DNA from: an uncultured virus (IMG/VR IMGVR_UViG_3300010148_000009)
Taxonomy: Duplodnaviria; Heunggongvirae; Uroviricota; Caudoviricetes
Reading direction: 5' to 3' (one strand)
DNA length: 64,000 bases
Virus record (IMG/VR): IMGVR_UViG_3300010148_000009
Part shown: one piece after another, positions 3,969 to 64,000 of the stretch
How positions within the stretch are numbered: position 1 is the first letter of the stretch
Layout: every line of letters starts with the position of its first letter
Translations under genes and position numbers: made by a program
The notes under the pieces: model-generated
Databases searched by the model: none
What the model was told of the DNA's origin: nothing
Seen by the model: the letters and a program-made list of their open reading frames with translations, nothing else

Positions 3969-4901
3969 TTATTTTCTGGCGTCCGCCTCTTTTTTATTTT
4001 TTAAGTACCAATCTATGGTAAGTTTTAATCCAACTTCAAAGGATAGAGGTCTAAATTGTGGGAGCTTCTGTTTCATTCGAGTTATGTCTAAAACTTTTCT
4101 TGGTACCCCGTTTGGTTTTGACGTATCCCATTCCAGCCTTCCGTGAAAATTCATATATTTAGCTGTAAGTTCAGCTAACTCTTTAATTGAGGTGCCAATT
4201 CCAGTGCCTATATTTACAGGTTCTAAATCGTGGGGTTGATCTATAAATTCAGAAATTGCTTGCGCCGCATCTTTTACATAAATAAATTCTCTAATAGCGC
4301 TTCCGTTACCCCAGTTTGTGATTTGAGGTTTATTCCTTTCATCAGAAAATCTTTTAATTAAAGCTGGAACAACATGAGATCTGTACTCAGTAAAAACATC
4401 ATGTGGTCCGTATAGGTTGGTTAGTGCTAAATGGTTTCCCTCTAGTCCGTATTGCTTGTGATAGGATTGTTGGGCTATTAATTGAATTTTTTTAGAAGAG
4501 CCATATCCAATAACTGAGTCATGCATAGGACCGCTCCAAAAGTCTTCCTCTTTCATATCTCCAATAATACAACCTGGGTAAGCGCAGGCAGAGCCAACTG
4601 AAACAACTTTTTTTACACCTGATTGAGCAGCCGCCTCAAAAAGATTGGTTGTCATTAATGTGTTGTGATGAAATAAATTTGCAGGTTCTTCAACATTTAT
4701 ATTTATTCCGCCATAATAAGCAGCTCCATGAATAATTACTTCTGGTTTGTGTTTTTTTAAATAAGATAAAGTTTTATCGTAATTGTAAAGATCAAAAGTT
4801 TTACTTCTTGGAGCTAATACTTTGTAGTTTTTTTTACAAATAGGAACCAATTGTTTACCTAGGAAACCTGAACCACCTGTTATTAATACTTTATTATACA
4901 T
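3969..4901 (-). CDS. fcl: GDP-L-fucose synthase family (Fcl/WcaG-like) epimerase/reductase
   Basis: TGGSGFLG; GSACAYP; YGSSK; NLYGPHD; SHVVPALI; WGNGSAIREFIYV. Confidence 0.85.
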   Translation of the reverse strand: MYNKVLITGGSGFLGKQLVPICKKNYKVLAPRSKTFDLYNYDKTLSYLKKHKPEVIIHGAAYYGGININVEEPANLFHHNTLMTTNLFEAAAQSGVKKVVSVGSACAYPGCIIGDMKEEDFWSGPMHDSVIGYGSSKKIQLIAQQSYHKQYGLEGNHLALTNLYGPHDVFTEYRSHVVPALIKRFSDERNKPQITNWGNGSAIREFIYVKDAAQAISEFIDQPHDLEPVNIGTGIGTSIKELAELTAKYMNFHGRLEWDTSKPNGVPRKVLDITRMKQKLPQFRPLSFEVGLKLTIDWYLKNKKEADARK

Positions 4902-5826
4902 TTTTATATTGACTTCTGCTATCTAAAGCGGGGCAAGCTTGGATTAATTCTCGAATACCTTCTTCAACAGTTTTTTCGATATAAAATCCAGCATCATTAA
5001 TTTTTTTATAAGAAACTTCATAATTTCTTTTATCTTCATCTTCTCCAATCTCTGCAAAATGAAGGTAATAATCAACTTTATCTTTAATCATTAAAGCAAT
5101 TTCTTCTTTGTTGAAATTATTAAAATCACCACCAACATTAAATGTATTGTTTTTCATTGTATCATAATTTTCAATGGCGTAAACAATTCCTTTAGCCATG
5201 TCATCAACATGTACAAAGGTTCTTTTAAATGTCTTTTCAAACATAACAAGAGTTTTATTGTTGATAGCTTGATAAACAAAATCATTGATTAAAAGATCCA
5301 AGCGCATTCTTGGAGAAAGGCCGAAAGCTGTGGCAAATCGATAAGCAACCGCACCATTTTCATTTAAGAAAATTTCTTCAGCTTGGGTTTTGGTTTTTCC
5401 ATAAAGGCTGATTGGGTTCAACGGAGTTTCTTCTGTGCAAATTTCATTTTCTATAATTCCATAGTTGGAACCAGTAGAAGCGTAAACCGTTCCTTGATCT
5501 TTCGATAGTAAAGATGATATTAGTTTTGATGAATCTACATTTACTGTTTTTGCTAAATCTGGATTTTTCCTGCAAGCTGGAAAGCCAACAATTGCGGCGA
5601 GGTGAATTACGAATTCAAAATTAGGGACCAAGTCGTTCATAAGAGATTCATCTCTAGCATCACCCTTAATGAACTTAAACTTTGGATTTTTAAAAAATGG
5701 AATAATGGTATGACCATTATCATACATTAAGTTGTCTACAACACAGACCTTATAATTTTTTTCTAATAATTGTGGGATTAGAACTGAACCTACATATCCA
5801 GCTCCTCCAGTAAGTAATATTTTCAT
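4894..5826 (-). CDS. NAD-dependent nucleotide-sugar epimerase/dehydratase (extended SDR)
   Basis: TGGAGYVG; HLAAIVG; YGKTK. Confidence 0.9.
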   Translation of the reverse strand: MKILLTGGAGYVGSVLIPQLLEKNYKVCVVDNLMYDNGHTIIPFFKNPKFKFIKGDARDESLMNDLVPNFEFVIHLAAIVGFPACRKNPDLAKTVNVDSSKLISSLLSKDQGTVYASTGSNYGIIENEICTEETPLNPISLYGKTKTQAEEIFLNENGAVAYRFATAFGLSPRMRLDLLINDFVYQAINNKTLVMFEKTFKRTFVHVDDMAKGIVYAIENYDTMKNNTFNVGGDFNNFNKEEIALMIKDKVDYYLHFAEIGEDEDKRNYEVSYKKINDAGFYIEKTVEEGIRELIQACPALDSRSQYKNV

Positions 5827-5845
5827 AACTAATAGTTATTATATA

Positions 5846-6736
5846 TTAATATTTAAAAATTTCAAGATTTTCTTCTTTTAGTCCCCAGTTTTTTGGATTG
5901 TTATTTTCGAAAATATTATTTCTATACGCTTGTGAATTAGATTTTCTATCAGGTGCATAAGAACCTTTTACTTTGGGGTGGTGTTGATGATAAAAGTCAG
6001 CTTCAGTTTTTTGAGATAAATTATATATGGAGTTTCCTTGTTCGCAGAGCCTATTTAAAAATTCTACATCCATTTGGTTCATATATATTAACTCTTCGTT
6101 AAAACCTTTTTCTTGTTCATATAAATTTTTTTCAACCATCATTATTCCAACAGCGCAACCATAAAATGAATGTATTCTGGGTATTGGATATATTCGATTT
6201 TGATAACATAGTGGATGTAAAATATCTATTTCTTTTGATAGTTTTTCATCTTTAATTATTGATTTGTAACCAAAGGATTGTTTTAAATTTAAATTTCTCC
6301 TACCAGAAAAACAGACTTTAGGCCACTCAAAGCCATAGTTTTTAACCTCGTATTCGTTAAAGAACCAATCTATAAATCTATAACCAACTAAAGTATCCTG
6401 GTCTATCCTCATAAAATGTTTTCCTGAAATATGTCTAAATCCACAATTCATGGCATGTACTTCAGAAAAAGGAGAATTTTTTTGATATTTTAAAGCTATT
6501 TTTTTGTCTACTGTTATAATTTTTAATATCTTTTTTATTTCATCATTTAATACAAGTACTTCTTTTAGGGGCTTATCTGGAGATGCCCAATCAACTAAGA
6601 CGCACTCAGATTGATCTAAATTTTTAGTTTCACTTAAAGCTTCTCCTAGAAAATTTAGAGTGTTAGTTAGTCTTGATACTGAATTGCCACAATAATAATC
6701 GTTTCTGGCAACTAGAACAAACGATCCTTTTATCAT
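5846..6736 (-). CDS. Putative GT-A fold glycosyltransferase
   Basis: VLVDWAS; AMNCGFR; RIDQD (DxD); GFNEELI..MDVEF. Confidence 0.65.
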   Translation of the reverse strand: MIKGSFVLVARNDYYCGNSVSRLTNTLNFLGEALSETKNLDQSECVLVDWASPDKPLKEVLVLNDEIKKILKIITVDKKIALKYQKNSPFSEVHAMNCGFRHISGKHFMRIDQDTLVGYRFIDWFFNEYEVKNYGFEWPKVCFSGRRNLNLKQSFGYKSIIKDEKLSKEIDILHPLCYQNRIYPIPRIHSFYGCAVGIMMVEKNLYEQEKGFNEELIYMNQMDVEFLNRLCEQGNSIYNLSQKTEADFYHQHHPKVKGSYAPDRKSNSQAYRNNIFENNNPKNWGLKEENLEIFKY

Positions 6737-7104
6737 ACAACAAGATTTGTTAAATTTTTAAAATCTAAAACGAATGATTCTTCATTAGCTAAGTAAACGT
6801 TTTTACCTTGATTTATAAGAATAGATTCATATTTCGGTAACGTTATAAATTCTTTTATTTCGTGAAATAAATCATTTTCAAGGTCAATATCTATTAATGG
6901 TAATATCCAAGATTCTGTATCTTTATTAAATTTATTCAAGTTCGTAAATTTTTCATGTAGAATTTTATCTCGATAGAAAAACAGATAAAAATAATGATTT
7001 AGCCTTTTCATATTTTGCTTATTTATTTCACATTGGAGATATTTAAATTCTTGGTCGTTTAAGGTTTCGAAAAAAACTCCAATGTAATTTTTAACTTCAT
7101 TCAT
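6733..7104 (-). CDS. Hypothetical protein
   Basis: Open frame between glycan genes; start placed at the internal Met (MNEVKN) that overlaps the upstream stop. Confidence 0.55.
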   Translation of the reverse strand: MNEVKNYIGVFFETLNDQEFKYLQCEINKQNMKRLNHYFYLFFYRDKILHEKFTNLNKFNKDTESWILPLIDIDLENDLFHEIKEFITLPKYESILINQGKNVYLANEESFVLDFKNLTNLVV

Positions 7105-8014
7105 TATTAAAAGCTTTTTGATATAAATCAAAAAATATTCTTGATTTTTCAGGTAAATAGTTTTGCCAATTATCTAAATCTTTTATTAGTTTTAAAGTCG
7201 TCCTGTAACCAATAATTTCATTCTCTAAATTATTAACCAAGTCTTGAGCATTTCTATCTTGGTAGACTGTGGCTTTATTGTATACAATACTGTTTGGAAA
7301 ATATTTTTGAGTTATATAGCCTCCCCATATATCATCCATTCTACCAATATTGGGTAAAACAGAATAATAAGGTAAAACTTCCCTGGAAAGAAAAGTGTTT
7401 TGTGAATTAAATGGGGATATAAAATTTGAGCAATAAGGCTCTGTTACGTCTGAAAACTTAACACAAGGTTTCATTGATAATCTAGCCATAGCGTCAATAT
7501 CGGGATCTCCATCCCATAGATCTGCTTGTATTAAAACTTTGCGTTTTGTTTTGCCTTTATATTTTACATTGTGCCTATGTGGTACATACTCAATTGGGTA
7601 ACCCCTATGCCATACATTATTACTTTTTGTTATTGACAGGGGATCAAAGACATCTAATTCTGGTTCGTATAAATCTAATTCAATGGTTTTACCAATGTAT
7701 AGATCTTCGCCCCAATTATCGTATGGAATATTATCATCGTCAACGGTGGCTACTATATCCGCACCTCTATTGTAAGCTTCAATAAAACCAATATTTCTTC
7801 TTTGTATTGAGTTCCAACCTATAGATTTGCTTAATTCTTTGTAGGTAAATTCTTGATATTCTGGATCAAGATAAGTGCAATTTAATTTCTTGTATGATTC
7901 ATGTGGAGTTTTTAGGTCACCTACAACTATAAGTTTCCAACCACTGATATTTGCAAATTTTATAGTAGCCTTTGTAGGCTCATTGATGGTTGTAATTACG
8001 ATATATTTTTTCAC
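7097..8014 (-). CDS. STELLO/DUF288-like putative glycosyltransferase
   Basis: IVITTINEPT; WKLIVVGDLKTP; RRNIGFIEA; VDDDN; DPDIDA; PFNSQNT; GRMDDIW. Confidence 0.8.
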   Translation of the reverse strand: MKKYIVITTINEPTKATIKFANISGWKLIVVGDLKTPHESYKKLNCTYLDPEYQEFTYKELSKSIGWNSIQRRNIGFIEAYNRGADIVATVDDDNIPYDNWGEDLYIGKTIELDLYEPELDVFDPLSITKSNNVWHRGYPIEYVPHRHNVKYKGKTKRKVLIQADLWDGDPDIDAMARLSMKPCVKFSDVTEPYCSNFISPFNSQNTFLSREVLPYYSVLPNIGRMDDIWGGYITQKYFPNSIVYNKATVYQDRNAQDLVNNLENEIIGYRTTLKLIKDLDNWQNYLPEKSRIFFDLYQKAFNNE

Positions 8015-8091
8015 GATACCTATTCATATTTATGATAAAATGATAAGGGGATATATCAATCGTTATTACAAACTTTATTCTCCAAATTGCA

Positions 8092-8688
8092 TTAAAATGA
8101 ATAGTTATACTTTTGGTTGTCTTTATGATATATCATCTCCACTTCTTTCCTGGACTCTTCTGTGAAATATTTTTGATAGTTTTGAGATCCCCCTTCTTTG
8201 AACCAAAATTTTTTATTTAATTTAATTTTATTAAAAATAAATTCTATATCACTTTTTAAATTTTCATATGTTGCAACAAAATCTAATTTTTCGTTTAAGA
8301 TATTTTGGTAGCCACATCCTTCTATCCCTACTGGTATGTCTGTAGCCTTGTGAAATCTGTGGTCATATTCAACTGTATTTGGGAAGTTATACTTTTTTAT
8401 ATAGTCAGCCAGATTAATTTTACCATCTGTAGATTGGTTAATGCCAAAATGGTTAGGAAATTTTAAGCATGATACTATTCTTGCCCAGGGGTTTCTAACG
8501 ATTGAAAATTTAAAATATTCGTCCCAATAATCTTTATAAAGCTCTCGGGCTTGACTCGCAATTAAATGCTTTTCTTTCTTTAATGCTTTATCGTGCCACC
8601 AGTCTTTGTCGTCAATTTTTCGCTCTATGTGGGTGCCCGCAGTTCTTTGAATATGTATGAAAATACATTTATATTTATGACTTATCAT
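8092..8688 (-). CDS. Sulfotransferase family 2 protein
   Basis: IFIHIQRTAGT (5'-PSB); FSIVRNPWARIVS (3'-PB). Confidence 0.85.
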   Translation of the reverse strand: MISHKYKCIFIHIQRTAGTHIERKIDDKDWWHDKALKKEKHLIASQARELYKDYWDEYFKFSIVRNPWARIVSCLKFPNHFGINQSTDGKINLADYIKKYNFPNTVEYDHRFHKATDIPVGIEGCGYQNILNEKLDFVATYENLKSDIEFIFNKIKLNKKFWFKEGGSQNYQKYFTEESRKEVEMIYHKDNQKYNYSF

Positions 8689-8694
8689 AACATT

Positions 8695-9489
8695 TTAAGT
8701 TAATAAATGGATGTTTTTGTTAGGGATTTTAAATCGTGCAGGCTTATTAAACATGCTTTCATTACATATTAAATGAGAACATTTTGATAATAAATGCATG
8801 TCGACATAAGATTCATATAATAATGTTATTGGATCAACTTTAATATTTTCATCTTTATATAAAGATAGTCGGTGGCCTGGTCCGAACCCTTTTGGCAAAA
8901 ATACTCTATCTTTAACTTTTATTCTATCTCTAAATTCTGCTTTGCATAAATTGATAAACGGCTTGGAGTCGCTGCATACGAAAAAAAACTTGTTGTCATA
9001 TTCTTTCATTTTTTCAATAAATAAGTTTTCTGGAACAACTCGTTTTGTTAAGGCTGGGTTTCCCTCGCCATTTCCAAATCTACCATGAACCCCGACACAC
9101 TGTTCGATATCAAAATCTACAATAGGCTCTTCTTTTAATCTCATTAACAAATTTTCTGATTGATATGATGCATGTAATTTTTCTCCATTTAATTCGATGC
9201 CTAGTGTCAGTTCATATTCAATATATTTGTTTTTTGTGCTTTTTATATCTGTGATATATTTTTTGTCAATTTCATTAATTTTTATGGGCATCACAATAGC
9301 CCTTTCATGAAAATCAAATAAATTAAAAATTCTAGAAAAATCAATTTGTTTTGTCTTAGCGAAATAACACCAATTTCTTAAATCTACAATGAAGTCGTAT
9401 TCATCTGTGCTTCGGGCAAAGGTATTAAACACACAGAGTTGCATTCCGAGTCCATCGGGTATATTTATATTTACATATTTTTTTTTCAT
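8695..9489 (-). CDS. NodZ-like (GT23-type) fucosyltransferase
   Basis: GLGMQL; VDLRNWCY; VGVHGRFGNG; FVCSDS; DMHLLSKCSHLI. Confidence 0.75.
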   Translation of the reverse strand: MKKKYVNINIPDGLGMQLCVFNTFARSTDEYDFIVDLRNWCYFAKTKQIDFSRIFNLFDFHERAIVMPIKINEIDKKYITDIKSTKNKYIEYELTLGIELNGEKLHASYQSENLLMRLKEEPIVDFDIEQCVGVHGRFGNGEGNPALTKRVVPENLFIEKMKEYDNKFFFVCSDSKPFINLCKAEFRDRIKVKDRVFLPKGFGPGHRLSLYKDENIKVDPITLLYESYVDMHLLSKCSHLICNESMFNKPARFKIPNKNIHLLT

Positions 9490-9501
9490 GTATATTAAAA
9501 T

Positions 9502-9588
9502 TTAATCTCCGAATTTGTAACCAAAATACTCAATATCTTTTGTATATTTTTCAGCAATAATTTGACGAGTGTCTTCATCGTAGTATTC
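9502..9588 (-). pseudogene. 3' remnant of a sulfotransferase gene ([28 protein letters not shown])
   Basis: 70/87 nt identical by hand alignment to 10412..10498; no start codon. Confidence 0.85.
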
Positions 9589-10408
9589 ACTTGATGTTTC
9601 CATATATGTAAAAATTCTTTAATTTACTATTCTTGCACAAAACATAATTTGTAACATTGCTATTTCCATGTACCAAGTAATCAGTCAATGACAAAAGATA
9701 GGCTTCAATTAATACGTCTTCTCCGAGTTTATACTTTATATCATTATATTTACGGTCTCTATGCATTTCTCCATTGTTTGACCGAGTTGCTGAGTATGTA
9801 ACAATTCTATCACCATATATGCGTTTACAATAATCAATAACAATCTGTGAATCCGAGCATAAAAAAATCTTAGCATAAGACGTAGTTTCCAATAACTGAT
9901 TTACTTTTGTAAAATACGCATCATATGGAACTCCATCCACTAACTGAAACTTTTCTCGCAATCCGCTTGCATTTCCATGAGTTCGTCCTTTTCCACGAAT
10001 ATGCAACCCTATCGTATAATCATTGAAGTTTTGTTCGGCAAATTGATCAATCTTCTGACGAATATGTGGTTTTAATTTAATATATCTGTCAATAATTCTA
10101 TTCATTTCTACGCGATGTGTGGGTTGGGCAAGTCCATTTTTTCTTGGAGTTATGCAATTTCCAAAACGAAATGCAAATGACTCTTTTTTACCAACAGGTA
10201 TATCTGTATCTTTTATGTCAAAAAAGTTTTCAAAATAATACTCAAATGCGTTATCATCGTTGTTGACTTGTTTGTAAGGTGAACTTACCCACAACAAATT
10301 TAATTTATGTTTATTTTGTTCGGCAACATATAGATGATCAACAACGTCATTTACAATGGAAAACATTCCTCTGACTCTATTATTGAATTTTACATTGTAA
10401 ACTTCCAT
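9587..10408 (-). CDS. NodZ/O-fucosyltransferase-like GT-B glycosyltransferase
   Basis: [37 protein letters not shown]. Confidence 0.75.
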
Positions 10409-10411
10409 AGT

Positions 10412-11077
10412 TTACTCTCCAAATTTGTATCTGAAATACTCAATGTCCTTTGCGTATTTTTCCGCAACGATTTGTTTTGTTTCTTCATCGTAGTATTCGG
10501 TGTAGTGTTTGTGCCTTGATTTGTTTTTGTGCGGAAGTTCTTGTCGTGGGATTCCTATTTTGTCGCAGATTGTATCAAAGTCTTCTTGGAGGTTTTCGAA
10601 TTTTCCAATATAATCTGTGTTTATTTCAAAGTTATCGTTTTGTAGAAATCCAATTTGACCTCCTTGGATTTTATTTTTAGGCCCCCAATTTCGGGAGGGG
10701 AACCATCCAGAGTTTAAACACCAAGATTTAAAATCTAAGGTTAAAGCTGAACTGTCTGTTCGAAGATTTCTATCTGTGTTATATGCTATTTCTACATCTC
10801 TTAAATAAAAATAACGGGAAAGTCTGAGATCCCAAGGGTTTCTTGTAAAAGAAAATTGAAAATAATTATCGATGTTAATATTATTTTTTTTTAGAATTGA
10901 CGTTATAGTTTGTTCTTTATTACTGCCAGTATAATCTAAGCTCAATGGTTCGTGATCACCTAAATCTAAATCTCTAAATTCTTGATTTAAATGTGGCTCC
11001 AAATGATTAACAATAGAGGTTCCTGCGGTTTTAGGTATTTTTATAAAAATAAATTTATGTGAATGAGAGATAATCAT
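10412..11077 (-). CDS. Sulfotransferase family 2 protein
   Basis: IFIKIPKTAGTSI; FTRNPWDLRLS; IGKFENLQEDF; HYTEYY. Confidence 0.88.
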   Translation of the reverse strand: MIISHSHKFIFIKIPKTAGTSIVNHLEPHLNQEFRDLDLGDHEPLSLDYTGSNKEQTITSILKKNNINIDNYFQFSFTRNPWDLRLSRYFYLRDVEIAYNTDRNLRTDSSALTLDFKSWCLNSGWFPSRNWGPKNKIQGGQIGFLQNDNFEINTDYIGKFENLQEDFDTICDKIGIPRQELPHKNKSRHKHYTEYYDEETKQIVAEKYAKDIEYFRYKFGE

Positions 11078-57815: not shown

Positions 57816-58089
57816 CGTCTTCAAGATCGAATAGCTCTTCCACCTTGAACGACTTCTTTTCAAATGGAGAAACTTCATATTGCAAACTTGCAATGTTGGG
57901 TACATAGTCAATATCGCTCTCATCCTCAGCAAGAACCTCTTGCCTTTTTGTTTGAGCTATTGAATTTTTAACTACTCGCTTTGCAACCACGGCTGAACCC
58001 ATAGGCTTTCCGCAGTTACTACAAAATTTAGGAACAGAACCGATGTACTCGTTTTTACTCCCGCAACTTTTACAATATTTTTGTGGCAT
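57793..58089 (-). CDS. Zinc-ribbon protein
   Basis: YCKSCG..KFCSNCG. Confidence 0.75.
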   Translation of the reverse strand: MPQKYCKSCGSKNEYIGSVPKFCSNCGKPMGSAVVAKRVVKNSIAQTKRQEVLAEDESDIDYVPNIASLQYEVSPFEKKSFKVEELFDLEDDGEAEKR

Positions 58090-58316
58090 TATTTTATAAT
58101 AATTAAATTTGTTTTTTCTGAACCATGAGACTCAAACATAATCTCATCTTTTCTCTTTTTTGTATCTACGACATATATGTTTTTAGTATTAATATTTAAT
58201 TCCTTAACTAATGTCTTAACAGCCATATCTCTAGTTTTGTCTTCTTTCTTCTTGTTTATGAAGGCGACAATTATAGCGGATAACGCTCCGATTAGTGCAG
58301 ATACTATGATTTCCAT
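58089..58316 (-). CDS. Small protein with an N-terminal TM helix
   Basis: IIVSALIGALSAIIVAFI followed by KKKE. Confidence 0.65.
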   Translation of the reverse strand: MEIIVSALIGALSAIIVAFINKKKEDKTRDMAVKTLVKELNINTKNIYVVDTKKRKDEIMFESHGSEKTNLIIIK

Positions 58317-58381
58317 AATTAAACTATACTTGTATTATACAAAATACACGTATTAATTCAATTAATAAATTTTTTATTTTT

Positions 58382-58576
58382 TTAATTAATTATTTTTAAT
58401 TTGCTTTTCTCTATTTTTATCTCGTGTTTATTAAATAAACCCCTAGAGTGTTCGGGCATAATTATTACAAATTCTTTGCCGTGATTTTCAAATCCTATTT
58501 GAGTAAAGATTTTAATTATTCTTCCGCATTTATCTTGATGATCATGCCGAAAACAAATCCTTTCTCCTTCTTGCAT
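58382..58576 (-). CDS. Hypothetical protein
   Basis: 64-aa ORF coupled to phoH. Confidence 0.55.
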   Translation of the reverse strand: MQEGERICFRHDHQDKCGRIIKIFTQIGFENHGKEFVIIMPEHSRGLFNKHEIKIEKSKLKIIN

Positions 58577-58577
58577 T

Positions 58578-59303
58578 TTATATGTTTTCTAGTTTTTTAA
58601 CAATATATTTTAATATCTCACTTCTTTTTATATCTTTGTGATCAAACTCAAAATTATGTATTCCTTGTTTTTGACTAGATTCGTCATTAAATAAATCTTT
58701 AATTTTATTAAATCCACTTTTACCATTGATATCACTCTGCATAGCGTCACCACAAATAAAAATCTTAGTGTTTTCTCCTATTCTTGTAATAAGAGTAATT
58801 AGTTCTTTTACGCTAAAGTTTTGAGATTCGTCAGCGATTACGATCTGATCGTTAAGGCTAGCTCCTCTAAGATAGTTAATAGGCATCGCTGATATAACCC
58901 CTTGATCGTCTAACTCTTTCGCGTCGCTAGCAGCCATTAATTCAAACAGTTTGTCGTTTAATGGCATCATAAATGGACAGAACTTCTCATCTATGTTTCC
59001 AGGAAGCGCACCCATTCCACGGTCAGCGCTTTCTATAATTGTTCTTACATAACTAATGTTATAGTTATTATTCATATTAAATAATTGAATTGCGGCATAG
59101 ATAGCCATAAAAGTCTTACTAGTCCCAGCAGGACCGCTTATAAATACTATCTTAGTGCCCCTATCAAACATTATCTTTAACAACTCTTGCTGTTTCTCAG
59201 AAAAATCTAACTTTTTAAGTTTTATTTTAGTTTTATTAAGAGAAGTCATTGCCTTCTCTATTTCCTGAGCATCATTGATGTCGGCTTTTTTGCGTCTAGG
59301 CAT
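58578..59303 (-). CDS. phoH: PhoH family protein
   Basis: GPAGTSKT; LPGNIDEK; YLRGAS; DESQN; TRIGE; GDAMQSD. Confidence 0.92.
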   Translation of the reverse strand: MPRRKKADINDAQEIEKAMTSLNKTKIKLKKLDFSEKQQELLKIMFDRGTKIVFISGPAGTSKTFMAIYAAIQLFNMNNNYNISYVRTIIESADRGMGALPGNIDEKFCPFMMPLNDKLFELMAASDAKELDDQGVISAMPINYLRGASLNDQIVIADESQNFSVKELITLITRIGENTKIFICGDAMQSDINGKSGFNKIKDLFNDESSQKQGIHNFEFDHKDIKRSEILKYIVKKLENI

Positions 59304-59554
59304 ATGTATATATTATTACAGTTATTTTTACACATGTTCGGATTTTTTTTTAAAAAACGTATAATTCCCAGTAATCACACGGCCAGATTTTGAGAAAAAC
59401 CACCCCCGCGCGATCTCGGCAGTAATCTGCCGTGAAAAAATTCAAAAAAAGGGGGTCATTAGTCTAGCTACTGCAGGCATTAGCTACGCTACAAGCGTCC
59501 TAATTCGAAGTTTTTTTTCTTGTGGTTTGGCTGTTTATATGCTAAGTTATACTT

Positions 59555-59746
59555 ATGAATCACAAAGGAATAGAGATACTCGCCAAGGTCAGATCTGATC
59601 TTGAATGGTGCGAACGCAGGCTTCGGCTTTCAACCGATAGGGTTGAGAAGGAAATTCTCGAAAACCTAATCGAGCAAAACAAGTCTTGGCTTGCTGAATG
59701 GGATTTGCAAGACAAGATCGCAATGAAAAATAATTGCAAGAGGTAA
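59555..59746 (+). CDS. Small helical early protein (leaderless)
   Basis: TTGTGG-17-TAAGTT-6-ATG. Confidence 0.75.
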   Translation: MNHKGIEILAKVRSDLEWCERRLRLSTDRVEKEILENLIEQNKSWLAEWDLQDKIAMKNNCKR

Positions 59747-59793
59747 TCTTTTTCCTTGCAATTCCATAAAAAAAAGTTTATAGTTATATCATA

Positions 59794-60009
59794 ATGAAAA
59801 TTGAAAAAGGATTAAAAGTCGGAGGAATTTATCACTCCTCGCAAAACAATAAAGCCGTGAGACTCGTCTCACTTGATCGCATCAAGGGCGGTCTTCGGGT
59901 TGCTACTATCAAGCACCACGGGCAAGATCACTTGTTCCAATCGGAAGTTTACCTTTCCGATCTTAGCAAGGCAACTGCCGAGCAAGTCGCTTCTTACTTC
60001 AGCCGTTAA
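59794..60009 (+). CDS. Small early protein
   Basis: TTGCAA-17-TATAGT promoter at 59756..59784. Confidence 0.75.
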   Translation: MKIEKGLKVGGIYHSSQNNKAVRLVSLDRIKGGLRVATIKHHGQDHLFQSEVYLSDLSKATAEQVASYFSR

Positions 60010-60030
60010 CCTAAAACAAAAGGAAATAAT

Positions 60031-60186
60031 ATGTTCATCCTAAAATCCATTCTCAACCAAGCGGGAGCCGTTTGGCAAGTCGAATCCATTGCAATGCGTA
60101 AGCGTGACGCCGAAAGGCTCTTGCGTTCCCGCCTTGCTAATAACGACGGCTCTCGTCGTTACGGGCTTTTTTCCGCTAACCGCTAA
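60031..60186 (+). CDS. Small early protein, 51 aa (not in ORF track)
   Basis: AAGGA SD; MFILKSILNQAGAVWQVES...YGLFSANR*. Confidence 0.7.
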   Translation: MFILKSILNQAGAVWQVESIAMRKRDAERLLRSRLANNDGSRRYGLFSANR

Positions 60187-60198
60187 CACTTTAAAAAT

Positions 60199-60504
60199 AT
60201 GAGAAAAGTTACAGAACAAATCAAGCAAGCTTTCGAGCAAGGCACATCTAAGAAAGTCGGCAACACCGAGACAGACGGGCAAACCGTTTGGCTTCACGGG
60301 AACGCCATTGTCAAGCGTGATCTTGATGGGCTAGTCCGTTGGAGTTTGGCGGGTTGGAATACTCCAACGACACGCGAACGCGTCAACGGCATTGCCAACG
60401 CGGGCGTTCACCAAGTCAACTTCGAGCCTGTCCTAAACGGTCAAGTGATTGACTCATTCGATTGGTTCGCCTCCGATAGAGTTGCACAATTCAACTCTAT
60501 ATGA
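60199..60504 (+). CDS. Hypothetical phage protein
   Basis: 101 aa; VWLHGNAI..GWNTPTTRERVNG. Confidence 0.8.
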   Translation: MRKVTEQIKQAFEQGTSKKVGNTETDGQTVWLHGNAIVKRDLDGLVRWSLAGWNTPTTRERVNGIANAGVHQVNFEPVLNGQVIDSFDWFASDRVAQFNSI

Positions 60505-60551
60505 TTGTCTTAATCGTCTTAAGTGTTGCACTATACTATCATACACTATGA
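60501..60551 (+). CDS. Possible 16-aa hydrophobic peptide (MIVLIVLSVALYYHTL)
   Basis: ATGA overlap with the previous stop; ends 2 nt before repeat copy 1. Confidence 0.35.
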   Translation: MIVLIVLSVALYYHTL

Positions 60552-60553
60552 CG

Positions 60554-60624
60554 TAAGTCACTGATAGTCAGGCACTTAGGCGGCGGGCGGCCCGCGACGT
60601 AAGTCTTTGGTAACCAACGACTTA
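60554..60624. repeat. Twin-palindrome element, copy 1
   Basis: TAAGTCACTGATAGTCAGGCACTTA, 21-bp GC linker, TAAGTCTTTGGTAACCAACGACTTA. Confidence 0.95.
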
Positions 60625-60730
60625 CGAAACGCATGTACATATACCATGCCAATCTATGCAGTAGGATTGTGCAAAAAGATAGTTGAAAGTTTTCCTTGAC
60701 TTTTCGGGTTTTCTCTGCTATGTTATAGGT

Positions 60731-60904
60731 ATGATTAAGAATAAAGATGTAGTAGTAGACCGACAAGGTCGAATTTTTCAAGTTGTCGATGCAGACTTTC
60801 GGACTGACCGACTAGGTAAGCAAATCCTTTGCCGTTTGTATCGCTCGCAAAAGCGAGTTGCATTCATGCCTTGGCAAGTCAAGAAACATCCTTTTTTCTC
60901 TTGA
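60731..60904 (+). CDS. Small early protein (leaderless; start revised from 60683)
   Basis: TTGACT-17-TATGTT-6-ATG. Confidence 0.75.
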   Translation: MIKNKDVVVDRQGRIFQVVDADFRTDRLGKQILCRLYRSQKRVAFMPWQVKKHPFFS

Positions 60905-60935
60905 CTTTTCCTAAAAAATCCTTTACTTTATACTT

Positions 60936-61199
60936 ATGTTAAATCAATCAAATAAAAATGTTCCTACTCGTAGGGTTCGCTTTTACTCTTTCAAGGCTCA
61001 AGTCACTCGCGTACTGAAGGACGATTCCTCGCAAGTAGATGTCTACAATATGCAAGGCACTTCTGATGTACACCCTTTAGAGCTAGAGGTATCCGAAAGG
61101 ATTGCCTTGTTAGGCTACGAGGATTATTCTCCTTGGAAGGTCACCGACTTCAAACTTACCCATGTATGGGAAGACTCAACCGAGCAATTCGTTTACTAA
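60936..61199 (+). CDS. Small early protein (leaderless)
   Basis: TTGACT-17-TACTTT-6-ATG. Confidence 0.75.
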   Translation: MLNQSNKNVPTRRVRFYSFKAQVTRVLKDDSSQVDVYNMQGTSDVHPLELEVSERIALLGYEDYSPWKVTDFKLTHVWEDSTEQFVY

Positions 61200-61304
61200 T
61201 GTTAACCGAACGAGAAAAAATCCTTTGCAAGTTTGTCATCGCTAAGATGAAAAAAACTAAAAAAACTTCTTGACTTTTACCGAAAACTTTGCTACATTAT
61301 ACTT

Positions 61305-61490
61305 ATGAATAAATCAGAAATGCTTAGAGAAATCTCCATCCTCCACGAAACGCTTAAGGACTGCGTCCTTACCATCGCCGACAAGGTTGCGATTCGCAAC
61401 GAGATCGGCGACCTGCAGGACAGGGTCGCTCTCCTGGACTTCCAAGAGTCTGAGGACATCGACTTCGGTCACCACTCCGAGTGGGAGTGA
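61305..61490 (+). CDS. Small acidic helical early protein (leaderless)
   Basis: TTGACT-17-TACATT-6-ATG. Confidence 0.75.
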   Translation: MNKSEMLREISILHETLKDCVLTIADKVAIRNEIGDLQDRVALLDFQESEDIDFGHHSEWE

Positions 61491-61492
61491 CC

Positions 61493-61563
61493 TAAGTTCT
61501 TGATAGTCAGGCACTTAGGGCGGCGGCGGCCCGCGACGCAAGTGCTTGATAATCAACGACTTA
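61493..61563. repeat. Twin-palindrome element, copy 2
   Basis: TAAGTTCTTGATAGTCAGGCACTTA, 21 bp, CAAGTGCTTGATAATCAACGACTTA. Confidence 0.95.
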
Positions 61564-61575
61564 CGAAAGGCTCGC

Positions 61576-61604
61576 ATTATAACATATAAGCCAAGAAATG
61601 TCAA
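61576..61604 (-). promoter_or_regulatory. Consensus antisense sigma70 promoter facing repeat copy 2
   Basis: TTGACA-17-TATAAT with extended -10 TG. Confidence 0.85.
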
Positions 61605-61707
61605 GAAAAAAAACGCAGATTCGCAAACTTTTTTTCAGTCGTTTTGTGCAATAAAATAGTTGAAAGTTTTTCTTGCAATTTTGCATTTCATGTGTTACTT
61701 TATAGGT

Positions 61708-61935
61708 ATGAATCAGTTAAAAGAAATTAAAAAAGAATTGAACCGAGATCTCGATCTTGGTCTTGCTCTATCCAAAGCCGAGGGAAACCTCAACTTTCTC
61801 GCAGGAGAATCTTCCAAGCAAGATTGGCAATCTTCGATTACTCAAGGTATGGCAATCCTTGACGCTCTCGAAGCCGTCCAAGTTGCTCGCAAGGCTTGGC
61901 AAGAAATCATCCGAGAAAAAAGAGCCGAAAGGTAA
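61708..61935 (+). CDS. Small helical early protein (leaderless; start revised from 61660)
   Basis: TTGCAA-17-TACTTT-6-ATG. Confidence 0.75.
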   Translation: MNQLKEIKKELNRDLDLGLALSKAEGNLNFLAGESSKQDWQSSITQGMAILDALEAVQVARKAWQEIIREKRAER

Positions 61936-61979
61936 TCTTTTCCCTTGCAATTTAACAAAAATTAGTTTAGATTTATAAT

Positions 61980-62126
61980 ATGAAAACAAAAGAACAACTA
62001 CAAAATGATCTTGCTTGGTGGCAAGACAAACTTAACCGATCACGCAAGGAATCGACTCGCTCGATTCGTGCCGTTCATGTGCAATACTTGCAGAGTGAAA
62101 TTAAAAAGCTAGAGGATAAATCCTAA
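61980..62126 (+). CDS. Small helical early protein, 48 aa (leaderless; not in ORF track)
   Basis: TTGCAA-17-TAGATT-6-ATG; MKTKEQLQNDLAWWQDKLNRS... Confidence 0.75.
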   Translation: MKTKEQLQNDLAWWQDKLNRSRKESTRSIRAVHVQYLQSEIKKLEDKS

Positions 62127-62189
62127 TGTTTTTTCTTATAATGTTCGCTCTCTCCTGCATCCTTTACTACCAACAAAGCTAAAAAAATT

Positions 62190-62393
62190 ATGTCATCATT
62201 CCAAATAAAATCACGAATCAAAGAAGTAAACGCAAGGCTTGCAAAGGCTACCGACTCGCAAGAGATCGCCCAACTAGAGAAGGATCTCCAAGATTGGAAG
62301 AACATTTTGCACGATGTCCAAATGCAAGAGTTTGAAGATCAAGTCGGCTTTAAGTCTATGGAACAAAACGCAGGCGTTTGGGACGAACGCTAA
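62190..62393 (+). CDS. Small helical early protein
   Basis: 67-aa coiled-coil ORF. Confidence 0.7.
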   Translation: MSSFQIKSRIKEVNARLAKATDSQEIAQLEKDLQDWKNILHDVQMQEFEDQVGFKSMEQNAGVWDER

Positions 62394-62421
62394 AAAAAAT
62401 AAAAAAAAGCTTGACAGTAAA

Positions 62422-62502
62422 ATGTTTGACCTAGTACAAATTCTAATACCCTTTTCAGCTATACTAATACCTTGCCTAATAGTTTGGATTTGGCCCGCAT
62501 AA
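62422..62502 (+). CDS. Possible 26-aa hydrophobic peptide (MFDLVQILIPFSAILIPCLIVWIWPA)
   Basis: Single TM-length peptide whose TAA is the first 3 nt of repeat copy 3. Confidence 0.45.
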   Translation: MFDLVQILIPFSAILIPCLIVWIWPA

Positions 62503-62570
62503 GTCACTGATAATCAGGCACTTAGGGCGGCGGCGGCCCGCGACGCAAGTGCTTGATAAGCAACGGCTTA
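62500..62570. repeat. Twin-palindrome element, copy 3
   Basis: TAAGTCACTGATAATCAGGCACTTA, 21 bp, CAAGTGCTTGATAAGCAACGGCTTA. Confidence 0.95.
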
Positions 62571-62582
62571 TGAAACGCTCGC

Positions 62583-62611
62583 ATTATAACATAAAAGGCA
62601 AAAGTTGTCAA
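62583..62611 (-). promoter_or_regulatory. Consensus antisense sigma70 promoter facing repeat copy 3
   Basis: TTGACA-17-TATAAT with extended -10 TG. Confidence 0.85.
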
Positions 62612-62701
62612 GGAAAAAATGCGACTCCATTAAAGTTTTTTTGTGAATAACTTTAGAAGATTTTTCTTGCAATTACTAGGTTTTACCTTTAGATTTATAA
62701 T

Positions 62702-62890
62702 ATGCAATCAAAAGAACTAGCAATCAAAACTCTCGAATCTCGCATCGAGGGAATCCGTAACGCCATTGCAAAGATGCGTAAAGACGCAACTTCTGCAACC
62801 CGTGCCAATATCGAAATGGCAATCGAGATGCTTGCTCTCCCTGAGCTTGCCAAAGTGCAAGCCGAGCTTGCTGAAATCGAAAACTCCTAA
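62702..62890 (+). CDS. Small helical early protein (leaderless)
   Basis: TTGCAA-17-TAGATT-6-ATG. Confidence 0.75.
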   Translation: MQSKELAIKTLESRIEGIRNAIAKMRKDATSATRANIEMAIEMLALPELAKVQAELAEIENS

Positions 62891-62894
62891 CACC

Positions 62895-63236
62895 ATGTTT
62901 CAAGCTCAACCATACACCCAAGACATACACGACCAATGCAAGGCATTGGATGATGTCAAGGCAGGTGTTACCTGCAAGAGTAATATCCCATCAGATCCTG
63001 CTTGGAAGGGTAACGCCAAGCGGTGGCAAGCCCATTGCTCAGGCAATCTCTACGCTCTGACCATACAGAATAGGTCAATGGATCACACCTTTACTGTACA
63101 TCAGTACGGCAAGAATGTTTTTCAAGCAGGTCTACGCTACTATCGAGGCTTTAATGTTAAGCATTCAGGCGGGGCATCTTGGACTTGGCAATGCACTAAG
63201 ATAGTCAACGCTCAACTGCTCAAGAATAACGCTTGA
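62895..63236 (+). CDS. Hypothetical early protein (start revised from 62766)
   Basis: ATG 4 nt after the previous stop; MFQAQPYTQD. Confidence 0.7.
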   Translation: MFQAQPYTQDIHDQCKALDDVKAGVTCKSNIPSDPAWKGNAKRWQAHCSGNLYALTIQNRSMDHTFTVHQYGKNVFQAGLRYYRGFNVKHSGGASWTWQCTKIVNAQLLKNNA

Positions 63237-63242
63237 CAAGCA

Positions 63243-63313
63243 TAAGTTCCTGATAGTCAGGCACTTAGGTGGCGGGCGGCCCGCGACGCAAGTGCTTGGT
63301 AACCAACAACTTA
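63243..63313. repeat. Twin-palindrome element, copy 4
   Basis: TAAGTTCCTGATAGTCAGGCACTTA, 21 bp, CAAGTGCTTGGTAACCAACAACTTA. Confidence 0.95.
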
Positions 63314-63326
63314 TAAAACGCTTTAC

Positions 63327-63354
63327 ATTATATCATAATTTTTAATTTTGTCAA
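63327..63354 (-). promoter_or_regulatory. Antisense sigma70 promoter facing repeat copy 4
   Basis: TTGACA-16-TATAAT with extended -10 TG. Confidence 0.8.
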
Positions 63355-63485
63355 GTATAATATAAGGTGTTTAGTATTTGTTCTATTTGTTAGTATCTCT
63401 TATCGCTAGTATTAGATAAATTTAAAAGTTGTATTTAGTGAATTTTTTTCTCGCTATTGTTCGGAAAGTGCTTTAGTCTTTATAT

Positions 63486-63602
63486 ATGAAAACAAAAAAG
63501 ATCAAAGTAAGAATCCCAATTCTTTTCACCAAGGCTCGCCCAATGAAGGACAAGTCTAGATATTCACGCAGGGTCAAGCATAAGCAAGCCCTTTCATACT
63601 AA
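63486..63602 (+). CDS. 38-aa basic peptide (leaderless; not in ORF track)
   Basis: TCGCTA-17-TAGTCT-6-ATG; MKTKKIKVRIPILFTKARPMKDKSRYSRRVKHKQALSY. Confidence 0.65.
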   Translation: MKTKKIKVRIPILFTKARPMKDKSRYSRRVKHKQALSY

Positions 63603-63620
63603 ACCAAGGAGGACAAAGCA

Positions 63621-63845
63621 ATGGCTAAAGGAGGACATTCCAAAAAGGAAAACCGAAAGATAATGAAGCAAATGAAAAAGTGCAAAGAGATTCGAGAAAT
63701 CGCTGAGACTGCAGATGGATACAGCGTTTTCTTGTTCGACAAGAGTATAGACCCTTTTTCAAATCATTGGTCAAGCAATGGATTTCATTCTCTTCGCAGG
63801 TGGTTGAAAAAGCACACAAGTCTCAAAAATTTAACATGGAGCTAA
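63621..63845 (+). CDS. Small basic early protein
   Basis: Strong SD AAGGAGG. Confidence 0.75.
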   Translation: MAKGGHSKKENRKIMKQMKKCKEIREIAETADGYSVFLFDKSIDPFSNHWSSNGFHSLRRWLKKHTSLKNLTWS

Positions 63846-63846
63846 A

Positions 63847-64000
63847 ATGATCTCAATAAGAAAAAACCCAAACTTTACTCAGTTCTTTCAAGTGTTTGCA
63901 TATGGCAAATTTATCGATGAGCTTTTCACTCAAGCAGAAGCTTTAAGGGTTGCAGAAGATGAGGCTAAACTTCGCCAAGTAAAACAAATAAATTTTCTTG
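63847..64000 (+). CDS. Hypothetical protein (truncated by window edge)
   Basis: ATG 1 nt after the previous stop, GGAG SD, open to the edge: MISIRKNPNFTQFFQVFAYG. Confidence 0.65.
   Translation, partial: MISIRKNPNFTQFFQVFAYGKFIDELFTQAEALRVAEDEAKLRQVKQINFL

Follow-up and report, generated by a model that had tools for sequence, protein, structure and literature searches.

The stretch of DNA analysed here, referred to as the window, comprises 64,000 nucleotides of an uncultured virus (IMG/VR record IMGVR_UViG_3300010148_000009). Between positions 60554 and 63313 it contains four copies of a 71-bp unit, in which two 25-bp palindromes (P1 and P2) enclose a GC-rich linker. Our preferred explanation, which we hold with a little more confidence than doubt, is that these units are paired IHF-type (DNABII) sites on double-stranded DNA, arranged around a GC-rich spacer and serving as boundary or upstream modules. 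As far as the sequence goes, the element is best read as an IHF-site-based repeated intergenic element, a kind that is already known, in a form that we did not find in print. The literature, searched by motif strings and by words, gave no description of it, and the family is apparently undescribed. The four copies are located as follows.

60554..60624, element copy 1: P1 60554-60578 (TAAGTCACTGATAGTCAGGCACTTA), GC linker 60579-60599, P2 60600-60624 (TAAGTCTTTGGTAACCAACGACTTA)
61493..61563, element copy 2: P1 61493-61517, linker 61518-61538, P2 61539-61563
62500..62570, element copy 3: P1 62500-62524, linker 62525-62545, P2 62546-62570
63243..63313, element copy 4: P1 63243-63267, linker 63268-63288, P2 63289-63313

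All four copies were confirmed at the places given in a preliminary description of this DNA. The start-to-start distance of 46 bp between the two palindromes was found in 4/4 copies, and so was the linker length of 21 nt, which is kept despite differing G-runs. The pattern AAGTNNNTGRTARNCANNNRCTTA matched eight plus-strand sites at 0 mismatches; these are the eight palindromes, and it matched nowhere else in the 64 kb. The other 7 of its 15 matches are the same sites on the minus strand, and 100 shuffled sequences gave a mean of 0.12 and a maximum of 1 match. In a repeat search, the copies formed one 120-nt family with 61-100% identity.

The element family and its phage clade

Through a scan of IMG/VR with the palindrome pattern we obtained at least 156 stretches, mostly twins, and the family statistics given below rest on 160 non-identical twin elements from this database and on 303 distinct palindromes. 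The conserved blocks of the palindrome are TAAGT, TGA, TCA and ACTTA. A large family in viral contigs was thus present, but the fixed 46-bp spacing was not general in it. The spacing is constant within a contig and varies from 36 to 58 bp across the family; the most frequent values were 50 bp (43 twins), 42 (21), 41 (16), 48 (12), 49 (11), 53 (11), 46 (10) and 47 (7), followed by 52 (7), 51 (5), 40 (5) and 44 (4), with 36-39, 54 and 58 bp together accounting for 8. The 46-bp geometry (10/160 twins) is specific to the lineage of the window. The linker has a G+C content of 83% in the family, and within a genome its length is kept while its sequence diverges. Arrays of three to five sites also occur, with spacing down to 36 bp centre to centre. 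On a 48-kb IMG/VR contig (L108) and at L076-L077, three to five palindromes in a row with 36-44 bp spacing replace the twins.

The sites were confined to one 5 to 12 kb early-gene region in each of five fully mapped records (G001-G005), which had 13-28 sites per record compared with 0-3 for a reversed-pattern control; there they occupy the spaces between small genes. Among further records, 18/21 contained four or more sites when up to 2 mismatches were allowed. The unit is repeated 4 to about 14 times per phage early region.

The window encodes a tape-measure protein (2,612 aa), a large terminase and a class I ribonucleotide reductase, and is part of a tailed phage. Homologues of its terminase with 44-80% identity were found in 5/5 element-bearing genomes tested, the closest one in a complete genome of 205.9 kb, and therefore the element-bearing genomes are considered one phage clade. 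Those records estimated to be complete measure 66-206 kb. Among 50,697 phage records, the window terminase reached 23-27% identity at best, the 3.6-kb region had no DNA match (E 1e-5), and a 101-nt element of a relative had no cultured-phage DNA match (E 1). Parts of the window region were present in marine metagenomes from 13 studies. A 210.8-kb contig (contig 4) of a Cellvibrionales metagenome-assembled genome (MAG; L167/G031) contains a twin element together with a terminase 63% identical to that of the window, the match being split and carrying in-frame stops (1 TGA, 2 TAG). Considering the twin element and the terminase, this contig is probably a phage genome of the clade that was binned with a bacterium.

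Probable IHF-type sites in phages, plasmids and chromosomes

The two halves of the palindrome are not equally conserved. The conserved half reads (A/T)NTCAACGACTTA, and conservation is much stronger in the half TCAACGACTTA(CG) than in the opposite one, an asymmetry that resembles, at the sequence level, the one in asymmetric IHF sites. Positions left free by the search pattern agree with the IHF consensus WATCAANNNNTTR, T15 in 78-81% and A18 in 78-82% of cases. The exact consensus was found on at least one strand in 177/303 palindromes, compared with a background of 0.146 per kb. For the window, half-site readings were exact in 4/16 cases, had one mismatch in 9 and two in 3, and every palindrome offers a reading with at most one mismatch; P2 of copy 2 carries the exact consensus on both strands. 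One IHF reportedly covers about 35 bp in the IHF-H' crystal structure, and the tightest array spacing of 36 bp would be about equal to this length.

The same palindrome exists outside the phages, in replicons and at places where IHF is classically found, such as insertion sequence (IS) ends, att sites beside tRNA genes and origins of transfer (oriTs). A plasmid BLAST search with one chromosomal site revealed it in R388, in similar conjugative plasmids of 33-62 kb and in the Bordetella plasmid BPP5P1. The palindrome in the R388 oriT, CGTAAGTCATTGATTTACAATGACTT (reverse strand AAATCAATGACTTA), matches 14/16 template positions and has the exact IHF consensus on one strand; that in the BPP5P1 oriT, CGTAAGTCGTTGATTTTCAACGACTTACG, matches 16/16 template positions and also has the CG flanks. 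In both plasmids it directly abuts the GC-rich relaxase hairpin IR2. According to the legend of Fig 5 in PMC4814116, the R388 oriT has four inverted repeats, of which IR2 and nic are bound by TrwC, IR4 by TrwA and IR3 by IHF. In the R388 sequence, the palindrome is the sole inverted repeat that separates IR2 from the TGTAGTG/CACTACA repeat adjoining trwA, and from this repeat order and the exact IHF consensus we take it as IR3.

Bacterial genomes were scanned as well (185,579 species genomes, with a version of the pattern in which 20 bases are specified), and 33 stretches were found where about 0.5 were expected, a figure that we estimated from the degeneracy of the pattern and the size of the collection. 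About 12 of these are twins on short MAG contigs resembling the clade phages, one of them a 210-kb contig, and the remaining stretches are single chromosomal sites. One Verrucomicrobiae chromosome (L163, L179, L180, L184, L189) contains five IS copies with the perfect palindrome CGTAAGTCGTTGGTAATCAACGACTTACG, located about 100 nt upstream of the start of an IS4-type DDE transposase. Other palindromes lie 2 and 27 nt from tRNA-Ser and tRNA-Gly genes. Three syntenic Fibrobacter genomes have an intergenic palindrome between the same genes; a fourth Fibrobacter genome also has the palindrome, with neighbouring open reading frames (ORFs) that do not cluster with those of the other three. Single sites were also detected in Akkermansia and Lewinellaceae.

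The protein that would bind these sites seems to come from the host. No phage-encoded DNABII (HU/IHF) protein passed the PF00216 cut-off in the related records (0/26; one sub-threshold match of 19 bits). Both this and the occurrence of the palindrome in unrelated replicons and chromosomes point to a host protein. The clade phage genome in the Cellvibrionales MAG is accompanied there by an IHF-alpha over the cut-off, binning being weak host evidence.

A paired operator for a phage-encoded dimeric protein, such as an early shut-off repressor or an activator regulating all early cassettes at once, would read the same sites differently. The conservation of palindromic blocks with no pairing signal, described in the next section, agrees with such an operator, as does the limitation of the sites to one early region per mapped record; with related terminases throughout (44-80%, 5/5), a conserved phage regulator could co-evolve with its site. 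However, the same palindrome is also found where there is no such phage, namely in the oriTs of plasmids, in IS copies and in conserved intergenic stretches of chromosomes from several phyla. Moreover, a Pfam scan of 24 representatives from the 40 largest clusters of element-flanking ORFs revealed no DNA-binding family, a scope of flanking ORFs and not of whole proteomes; the families found were DUF932, L5 gp82, GP88, Kyano_Gp96, DUF7249 and a RuvB-like AAA protein. We consider a phage-specific operator unlikely. The dispersed operators already known, such as the L5 stoperators, phiC31 CIRs, P1 C1 operators and RK2 KorB sites, also occupy intergenic gaps in many copies, but they bind a regulator encoded by their own element, whereas the palindrome of the phage units also occurs in unrelated replicons and chromosomes.

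Base pairing and structural readings of the unit

The preliminary description proposed that the element folds either as two short hairpins or as one long stem, and supported this by paired base changes among the four copies. The single strands of the window are indeed predicted to fold well. On the plus strand, copies 2-4 form one long hairpin of -32.4 to -35.1 kcal/mol (z -4.4 to -5.2) and copy 1 forms three hairpins (z -3.8); taking both strands together, the values range from -30.6 to -35.1 kcal/mol (z -2.9 to -5.2). The quoted outer ends GTAAGTC/GACTTAC, ATAAGTC/GGCTTAT and ATAAGTT/AACTTAT are present, and so are the inner arms GCACTT/AAGTGC in copies 2-4. Copy 2 has a C.C mismatch at its outermost position, which the earlier account did not include. 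Copies 1 and 4 have TGGTAACCA at the centre of P2; copy 2 has TGATAATCA there and copy 3 has TGATAAGCA, the last being a one-sided change.

This pairing did not extend to the family. The N3 positions within the palindrome pair in 45-46% of cells compared with 48% for shuffled partners (z -1.5), and none of the mirrored pairs from 6/20 to 12/14 exceeded the shuffles. Between P1 and P2, the variable positions of the supposed long stem pair at or below chance (z +1.0 to -5.8), and the same base is found where its complement would be needed, for example CC 47 and GG 41 times against CG 17 and GC 16. As to the compensatory change at the P2 centre, the bases are as described, but the G-C form of pair 11/15 (TGGTAACCA) is outside the six commonest pair types, the sixth of which accounts for 6/303. 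The covariation of the outer ends likewise exists among the window copies and not in the family, where pairing reaches z 1.2. The deeper alignment thus contained no covariation at palindrome positions, either within or between P1 and P2, and the two alternative folds keep the window single strands as their support, the linker core being the only part of the unit with a pairing signal in the family.

In this core, at positions 4-11 from either palindrome, mirror pairing is 52-63% against 33-45% in shuffles (z 3.4-7.6), and CG and GC pairs are both common. When the register was slid by 1-3 nt, the signal was lost (0.56 vs 0.36-0.38; 154 distinct linkers). The folding energy of the linker hairpin had a mean z of -0.35 against mononucleotide shuffles, a test with low power because the sequence has 83% G+C. 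In some contexts, the linker dyad might take the form of a cruciform or of an RNA hairpin; alternatively, it could have arisen secondarily, through inversion between the palindromes and subsequent gene conversion. Judged by these comparisons, the unit is two sequence motifs around a GC-rich partial dyad, and is neither a conserved long stem nor a conserved pair of hairpins.

The earlier reading as a functional structured element therefore survives in its first part, since the element looks functional and is conserved well beyond this genome, while the structural part is mostly unsupported. Three of the four functions suggested with it, a single-stranded recombination substrate, a two-state RNA and an RNase III stem, find no support from palindrome base pairing in the family. 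The fourth one, a paired operator for a dimeric protein, is the only option that fits the wider data. The remark that the element was not recognised as a named family also agrees with our search: Rfam gave nothing on the elements within 58000-64000, its one off-element match being mir-72 (E 4.5, 17.3 bits vs a gathering threshold of 60).

As a structured RNA, the unit would lie at the 3' end of each early mRNA and act there as a terminator, a stabiliser or an RNase III-type stem, or it would form the 5' portion of a short transcript started at the minus-strand promoters. Besides the strong predicted folds on both strands and the linker core that covaries as a dyad, the location of the units is in its favour. 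The window units start 3 to 50 nt past stop codons with no other terminator between: copy 1 comes after the stop of ORF 60199-60504 (Kyano_Gp96-like), copy 2 starts 3 nt past the stop of ORF 61305-61490, and copy 4 comes after the stop of ORF 62766-63236. Three consensus promoters, listed in the next section, would moreover transcribe the unit from the minus strand. We nevertheless find a structured RNA quite improbable, because covariation is absent outside the linker in the 160 twins, some positions of the long P1-P2 stem even tend away from complementarity (z down to -5.8), and in relatives a canonical terminator comes before the unit and a promoter after it. In addition, the units have no Rfam match, their GC stem is followed by no T-run in the window, and the same sequence is a DNA site in oriT. 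The particular case of an RNase III processing stem of the T7 early type was rejected on the P1-P2 variable positions, which pair no better than shuffled ones in the 160 twins. A tRNA-like reading was rejected as well, ARAGORN giving nothing.

The unit might also act like an attC site or an oriT, as a substrate that is recombined or nicked in single-stranded or cruciform form and mobilises the early cassettes. The GC hairpin abuts the palindrome exactly as IR2 abuts IR3 in the oriT of R388 and BPP5P1, and the linker combines dyad symmetry with variable sequence. The order of cassettes also differs between the window and its relative G002 (72-89% identity), in which homologous blocks are partly reordered or missing. 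Contigs of a marine sequencing run (run X5) join window positions at the element edges 62498, 60624, 60549/60554 and 63231, and also at promoter repeats. These joints are suggestive of cassette shuffling at the elements, but we gave them little weight, since the assembly could have produced chimeras at repeats and many of the joints fall at promoter repeats and not at element edges. Against a recombination substrate, tyrosine recombinase (PF00589) and TrwC relaxase (PF08751) were each found in 0/23 related records, five of them complete (other HUH and serine enzymes were not searched), a conserved nick motif is absent, and the palindromes stand on both sides of the hairpin. We therefore regard such a substrate as very unlikely. 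Two special forms of it were rejected: the integron attC site, on the PF00589 result, the arms without covariation and the units with no GTTRRRY core visible, and the MOBF-type oriT, on the PF08751 result and the palindromes occupying both sides of the GC dyad.

Finally, the units might be selfish or neutral repeats with no function, spread by homologous recombination together with promoter cassettes. The copies within a genome are alike, and the linker symmetry could then come from the palindrome inversion and gene conversion mentioned above. However, the blocks are conserved across a terminase divergence of 44-80% identity and also in plasmids and bacteria, and the linker keeps its length within a genome despite the divergence of its sequence. 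Compared with G002, the best conserved block is 62500-62704 (element 3 with its promoters) at 89%, whereas the flanking coding blocks have 74-86%. A functionless repeat is the explanation we find hardest to credit.

Early promoters and the proposed boundary module

The following promoters were found beside the units of the window.

61576..61604, minus strand: consensus sigma-70-type promoter (TTGACA, 17 nt, TATAAT, TG before the -10), 12/12 matches, pointing into P2 of copy 2
62583..62611, minus strand: consensus sigma-70-type promoter of the same kind, 12/12, pointing into P2 of copy 3
63327..63354, minus strand: consensus sigma-70-type promoter with a 16-nt spacer, 12/12, pointing into P2 of copy 4
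60696..60733, plus strand: early promoter after copy 1 (TTGACT, 17 nt, TATGTT, 6 nt, ATG)
61673..61710, plus strand: early promoter after copy 2 (TTGCAA, 17 nt, TACTTT, 6 nt, ATG)
62667..62704, plus strand: early promoter-like site after copy 3 (TTGCAA ... TAGATT TATAAT ATG)
59514-59562, 59741-59808, 60690-60738, 60899-60938, 61264-61312, 61667-61715, 61966-61995, 62688-62717 and 63472-63501: early-gene promoter layout

In relatives, the order towards the downstream gene is the gene end, in many cases an intrinsic terminator preceding the unit by 23-31 nt, then P1, linker and P2, then CGACA and an A-rich stretch, in some cases with phased A-tracts, and finally TTGACW, 17 nt, TANNNT, about 6 nt and ATG. 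The gap between terminator and promoter that holds the unit has no recognised promoter of its own. An early promoter (TTGNNN-N16-18-TANNNT-N5-8-ATG) was located within 220 nt of 55/140 twins compared with 25/456 control stretches, and 8 of these 55 twins have a strict terminator on the other side as well. Since the unit lies between terminator and promoter in many relatives, it would have its role as DNA.

The distance from P2 to the plus-strand promoter in the window is 71, 109 and 96 nt for copies 1-3, longer than in relatives, and the extra space behind copies 2-4 holds the perfect minus-strand consensus promoter aimed into P2. These three minus-strand promoters with TG are the sole 12/12 sites in 57.5-64 kb and are antisense to the preceding gene; copy 1 is without one. 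The relative G002 keeps the -10 TATAAT at the place matching the 62583..62611 promoter (L060). A TTGACA hexamer is found at 63233-63238, 4 nt upstream of P1 of copy 4. It also stands 3-5 nt upstream of P1 in the distant relatives L014, L024, L060, L065 and L125, and within an 18-letter stretch that a run X5 contig has in place of 1.3 kb (joint 61197 to 62498); no usable -10 follows the TTGACA upstream of P1. A promoter inside the palindromes (TTGATA/TTGACT as the -35, or a T7-like similarity of ACGACT) was rejected, as no usable -10 was seen by eye at the right spacing. An N4-type hairpin promoter was rejected because the conserved stem is just 4 bp long and no T7-like RNA polymerase domain was seen in the 16 large ORFs of the window that were scanned.

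Small plus-strand ORFs fill the region from about 59.5 kb onward, and the plus strand is taken as the coding strand because several of these ORFs belong to protein families common to other uncultured phages. The small early genes have a fixed layout of TTGACW or TTGCAA, 17 nt, TANNNT, 5-7 nt and ATG, which many relatives share from TTGACW/TTGCAA to ATG. The promoter at 60696..60733 looks like a leaderless arrangement, and leaderless early mRNAs are suggested because the layout leaves no room for a ribosome-binding site; later genes, for example at 63621, carry AGGAGG. A presumed-RNA run, with 0.06 of the words, covered 59803-60026 alone.

Under our preferred reading as paired IHF-type sites, each unit would consist of two sites of 25-29 bp, and the GC-rich, weakly dyad-symmetric spacer would set a genome-fixed distance between them (46 bp here). 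A host IHF-type protein would bind both sites and make two sharp bends around the stiff GC spacer; binding and bending are predicted by analogy with R388 IR3. The resulting compact nucleoprotein knot would separate adjacent early transcription units. Such a knot might stop read-through or keep supercoils from spreading, and might also shape the DNA path upstream of the next promoter. The three minus-strand consensus promoters firing into P2 might be blocked or tuned by the bound protein, and the units, being conserved repeats, could serve as seams for recombination that reshuffles early-gene cassettes.

Several points weigh against paired IHF-type sites. The exact E. coli consensus appears in just 4/16 half-site readings of the window and in none of copies 1 and 4, and the conserved A21 and C22, the CG flanks and T9 G10 are unexplained by the classical IHF consensus. 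Some classical IHF sites prefer an A/T-rich flank, and the spacer here has 83% G+C. The linker dyad covariation (z 3.4 to 7.6) is unexplained by protein docking alone. P2 stands anywhere from 9 to 131 nt from the -35 box in the family, and a 10.2-bp periodicity of the P2-to-promoter distance is weak (R 0.335; p about 0.01 for 58 values and 0.08 for the 41 unique ones). Only 1/5 palindrome-bearing bacterial genomes had an IHF-alpha over the cut-off, the other four having DNABII homologues below it. The equation of IR3 with the R388 palindrome, which provides the link to a known IHF site, is itself an inference from repeat order and IHF consensus.

A bolder form of the reading, which we offer as a tentative and rather doubtful idea, is that the unit is a chromatin boundary built by the phage. 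Two IHF U-turns would clamp the GC dyad and insulate each leaderless, strongly transcribed early cassette against the adjoining ones by halting supercoils, read-through and the silencing of AT-rich DNA, and the unit would at the same time be a portable seam for the exchange of host-takeover genes in this marine and freshwater clade of 130-205-kb phages, as an enzyme-free counterpart of integron cassettes.

For the rest of the window, G+C content is 28-37% across most of its length and 40-43% in the final 4 kb, and ARAGORN found 0 tRNA genes. In the relative G007 (170 kb; L042, 1412-1485), a tRNA-Cys gene directly adjoins a twin element. A sugar-modifying block at 3969-11077 on the minus strand contains two nucleotide-sugar epimerase-like and two galactose-3-O-sulfotransferase-like ORFs, and adjoins an open-ended ORF of 1,285 aa with InlB B-repeat domains.

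Known systems and meaning of the element

Among known systems, R388 IR3 (ibs, IncW) and its BPP5P1 equivalent share the palindrome itself and the directly abutting GC-rich hairpin. Theirs is a single site that belongs to a relaxosome, together with nic, the relaxase and TrwA, whereas the phage units are repeated pairs of sites flanking the hairpin, and a TrwC-type relaxase was found in 0/23 related records.

As analogues, BIME-1/RIB elements and promoter-early stem-loops (PeSLs) appear to be the nearest. REPs bind IHF and act as topological insulators, according to PMC3333891. The BIME-1/RIB-RIP composites of enterobacteria (REP, IHF site, REP) are also repeated, intergenic and located where transcription units have their 3' ends, and they combine GC-rich palindromes with IHF sites. 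Their arrangement is the inverse one, since the phage unit has two IHF-type sites flanking one GC dyad, and they belong to a chromosome and not to a phage. No REP sequence or RAYT transposase was noted in the phage, where no search was made for either. The PeSLs of T4-type phages (PMC2839356) are likewise small repeated regulatory cassettes, located next to strong sigma-70-type promoters in early regions of high plasticity, and in both cases there is a link to the modular shuffling of small genes. A PeSL, however, is a promoter with a terminator stem-loop, whereas the phage unit conserves two protein-site palindromes and leaves the promoter, and in relatives the terminator, as distinct features; the phage group is also unlike the T4-type phages, with a terminase identity of 23-27% at best.

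If the units are paired IHF-type sites, a large and widespread group of uncultured phages would mark every early, host-takeover unit with a standard two-site module for a host protein. This would provide a sequence signature by which early regions and the borders of cassettes could be located in phage genomes from metagenomes, and a handle on host range, as the host must supply an IHF-type protein. It would also be a natural model of how bends and a GC ruler insulate packed strong promoters. The link between the phage element and the IHF site of conjugative oriTs suggests that mobile elements of very different kinds make use of one and the same near-optimal and nearly symmetric IHF site.

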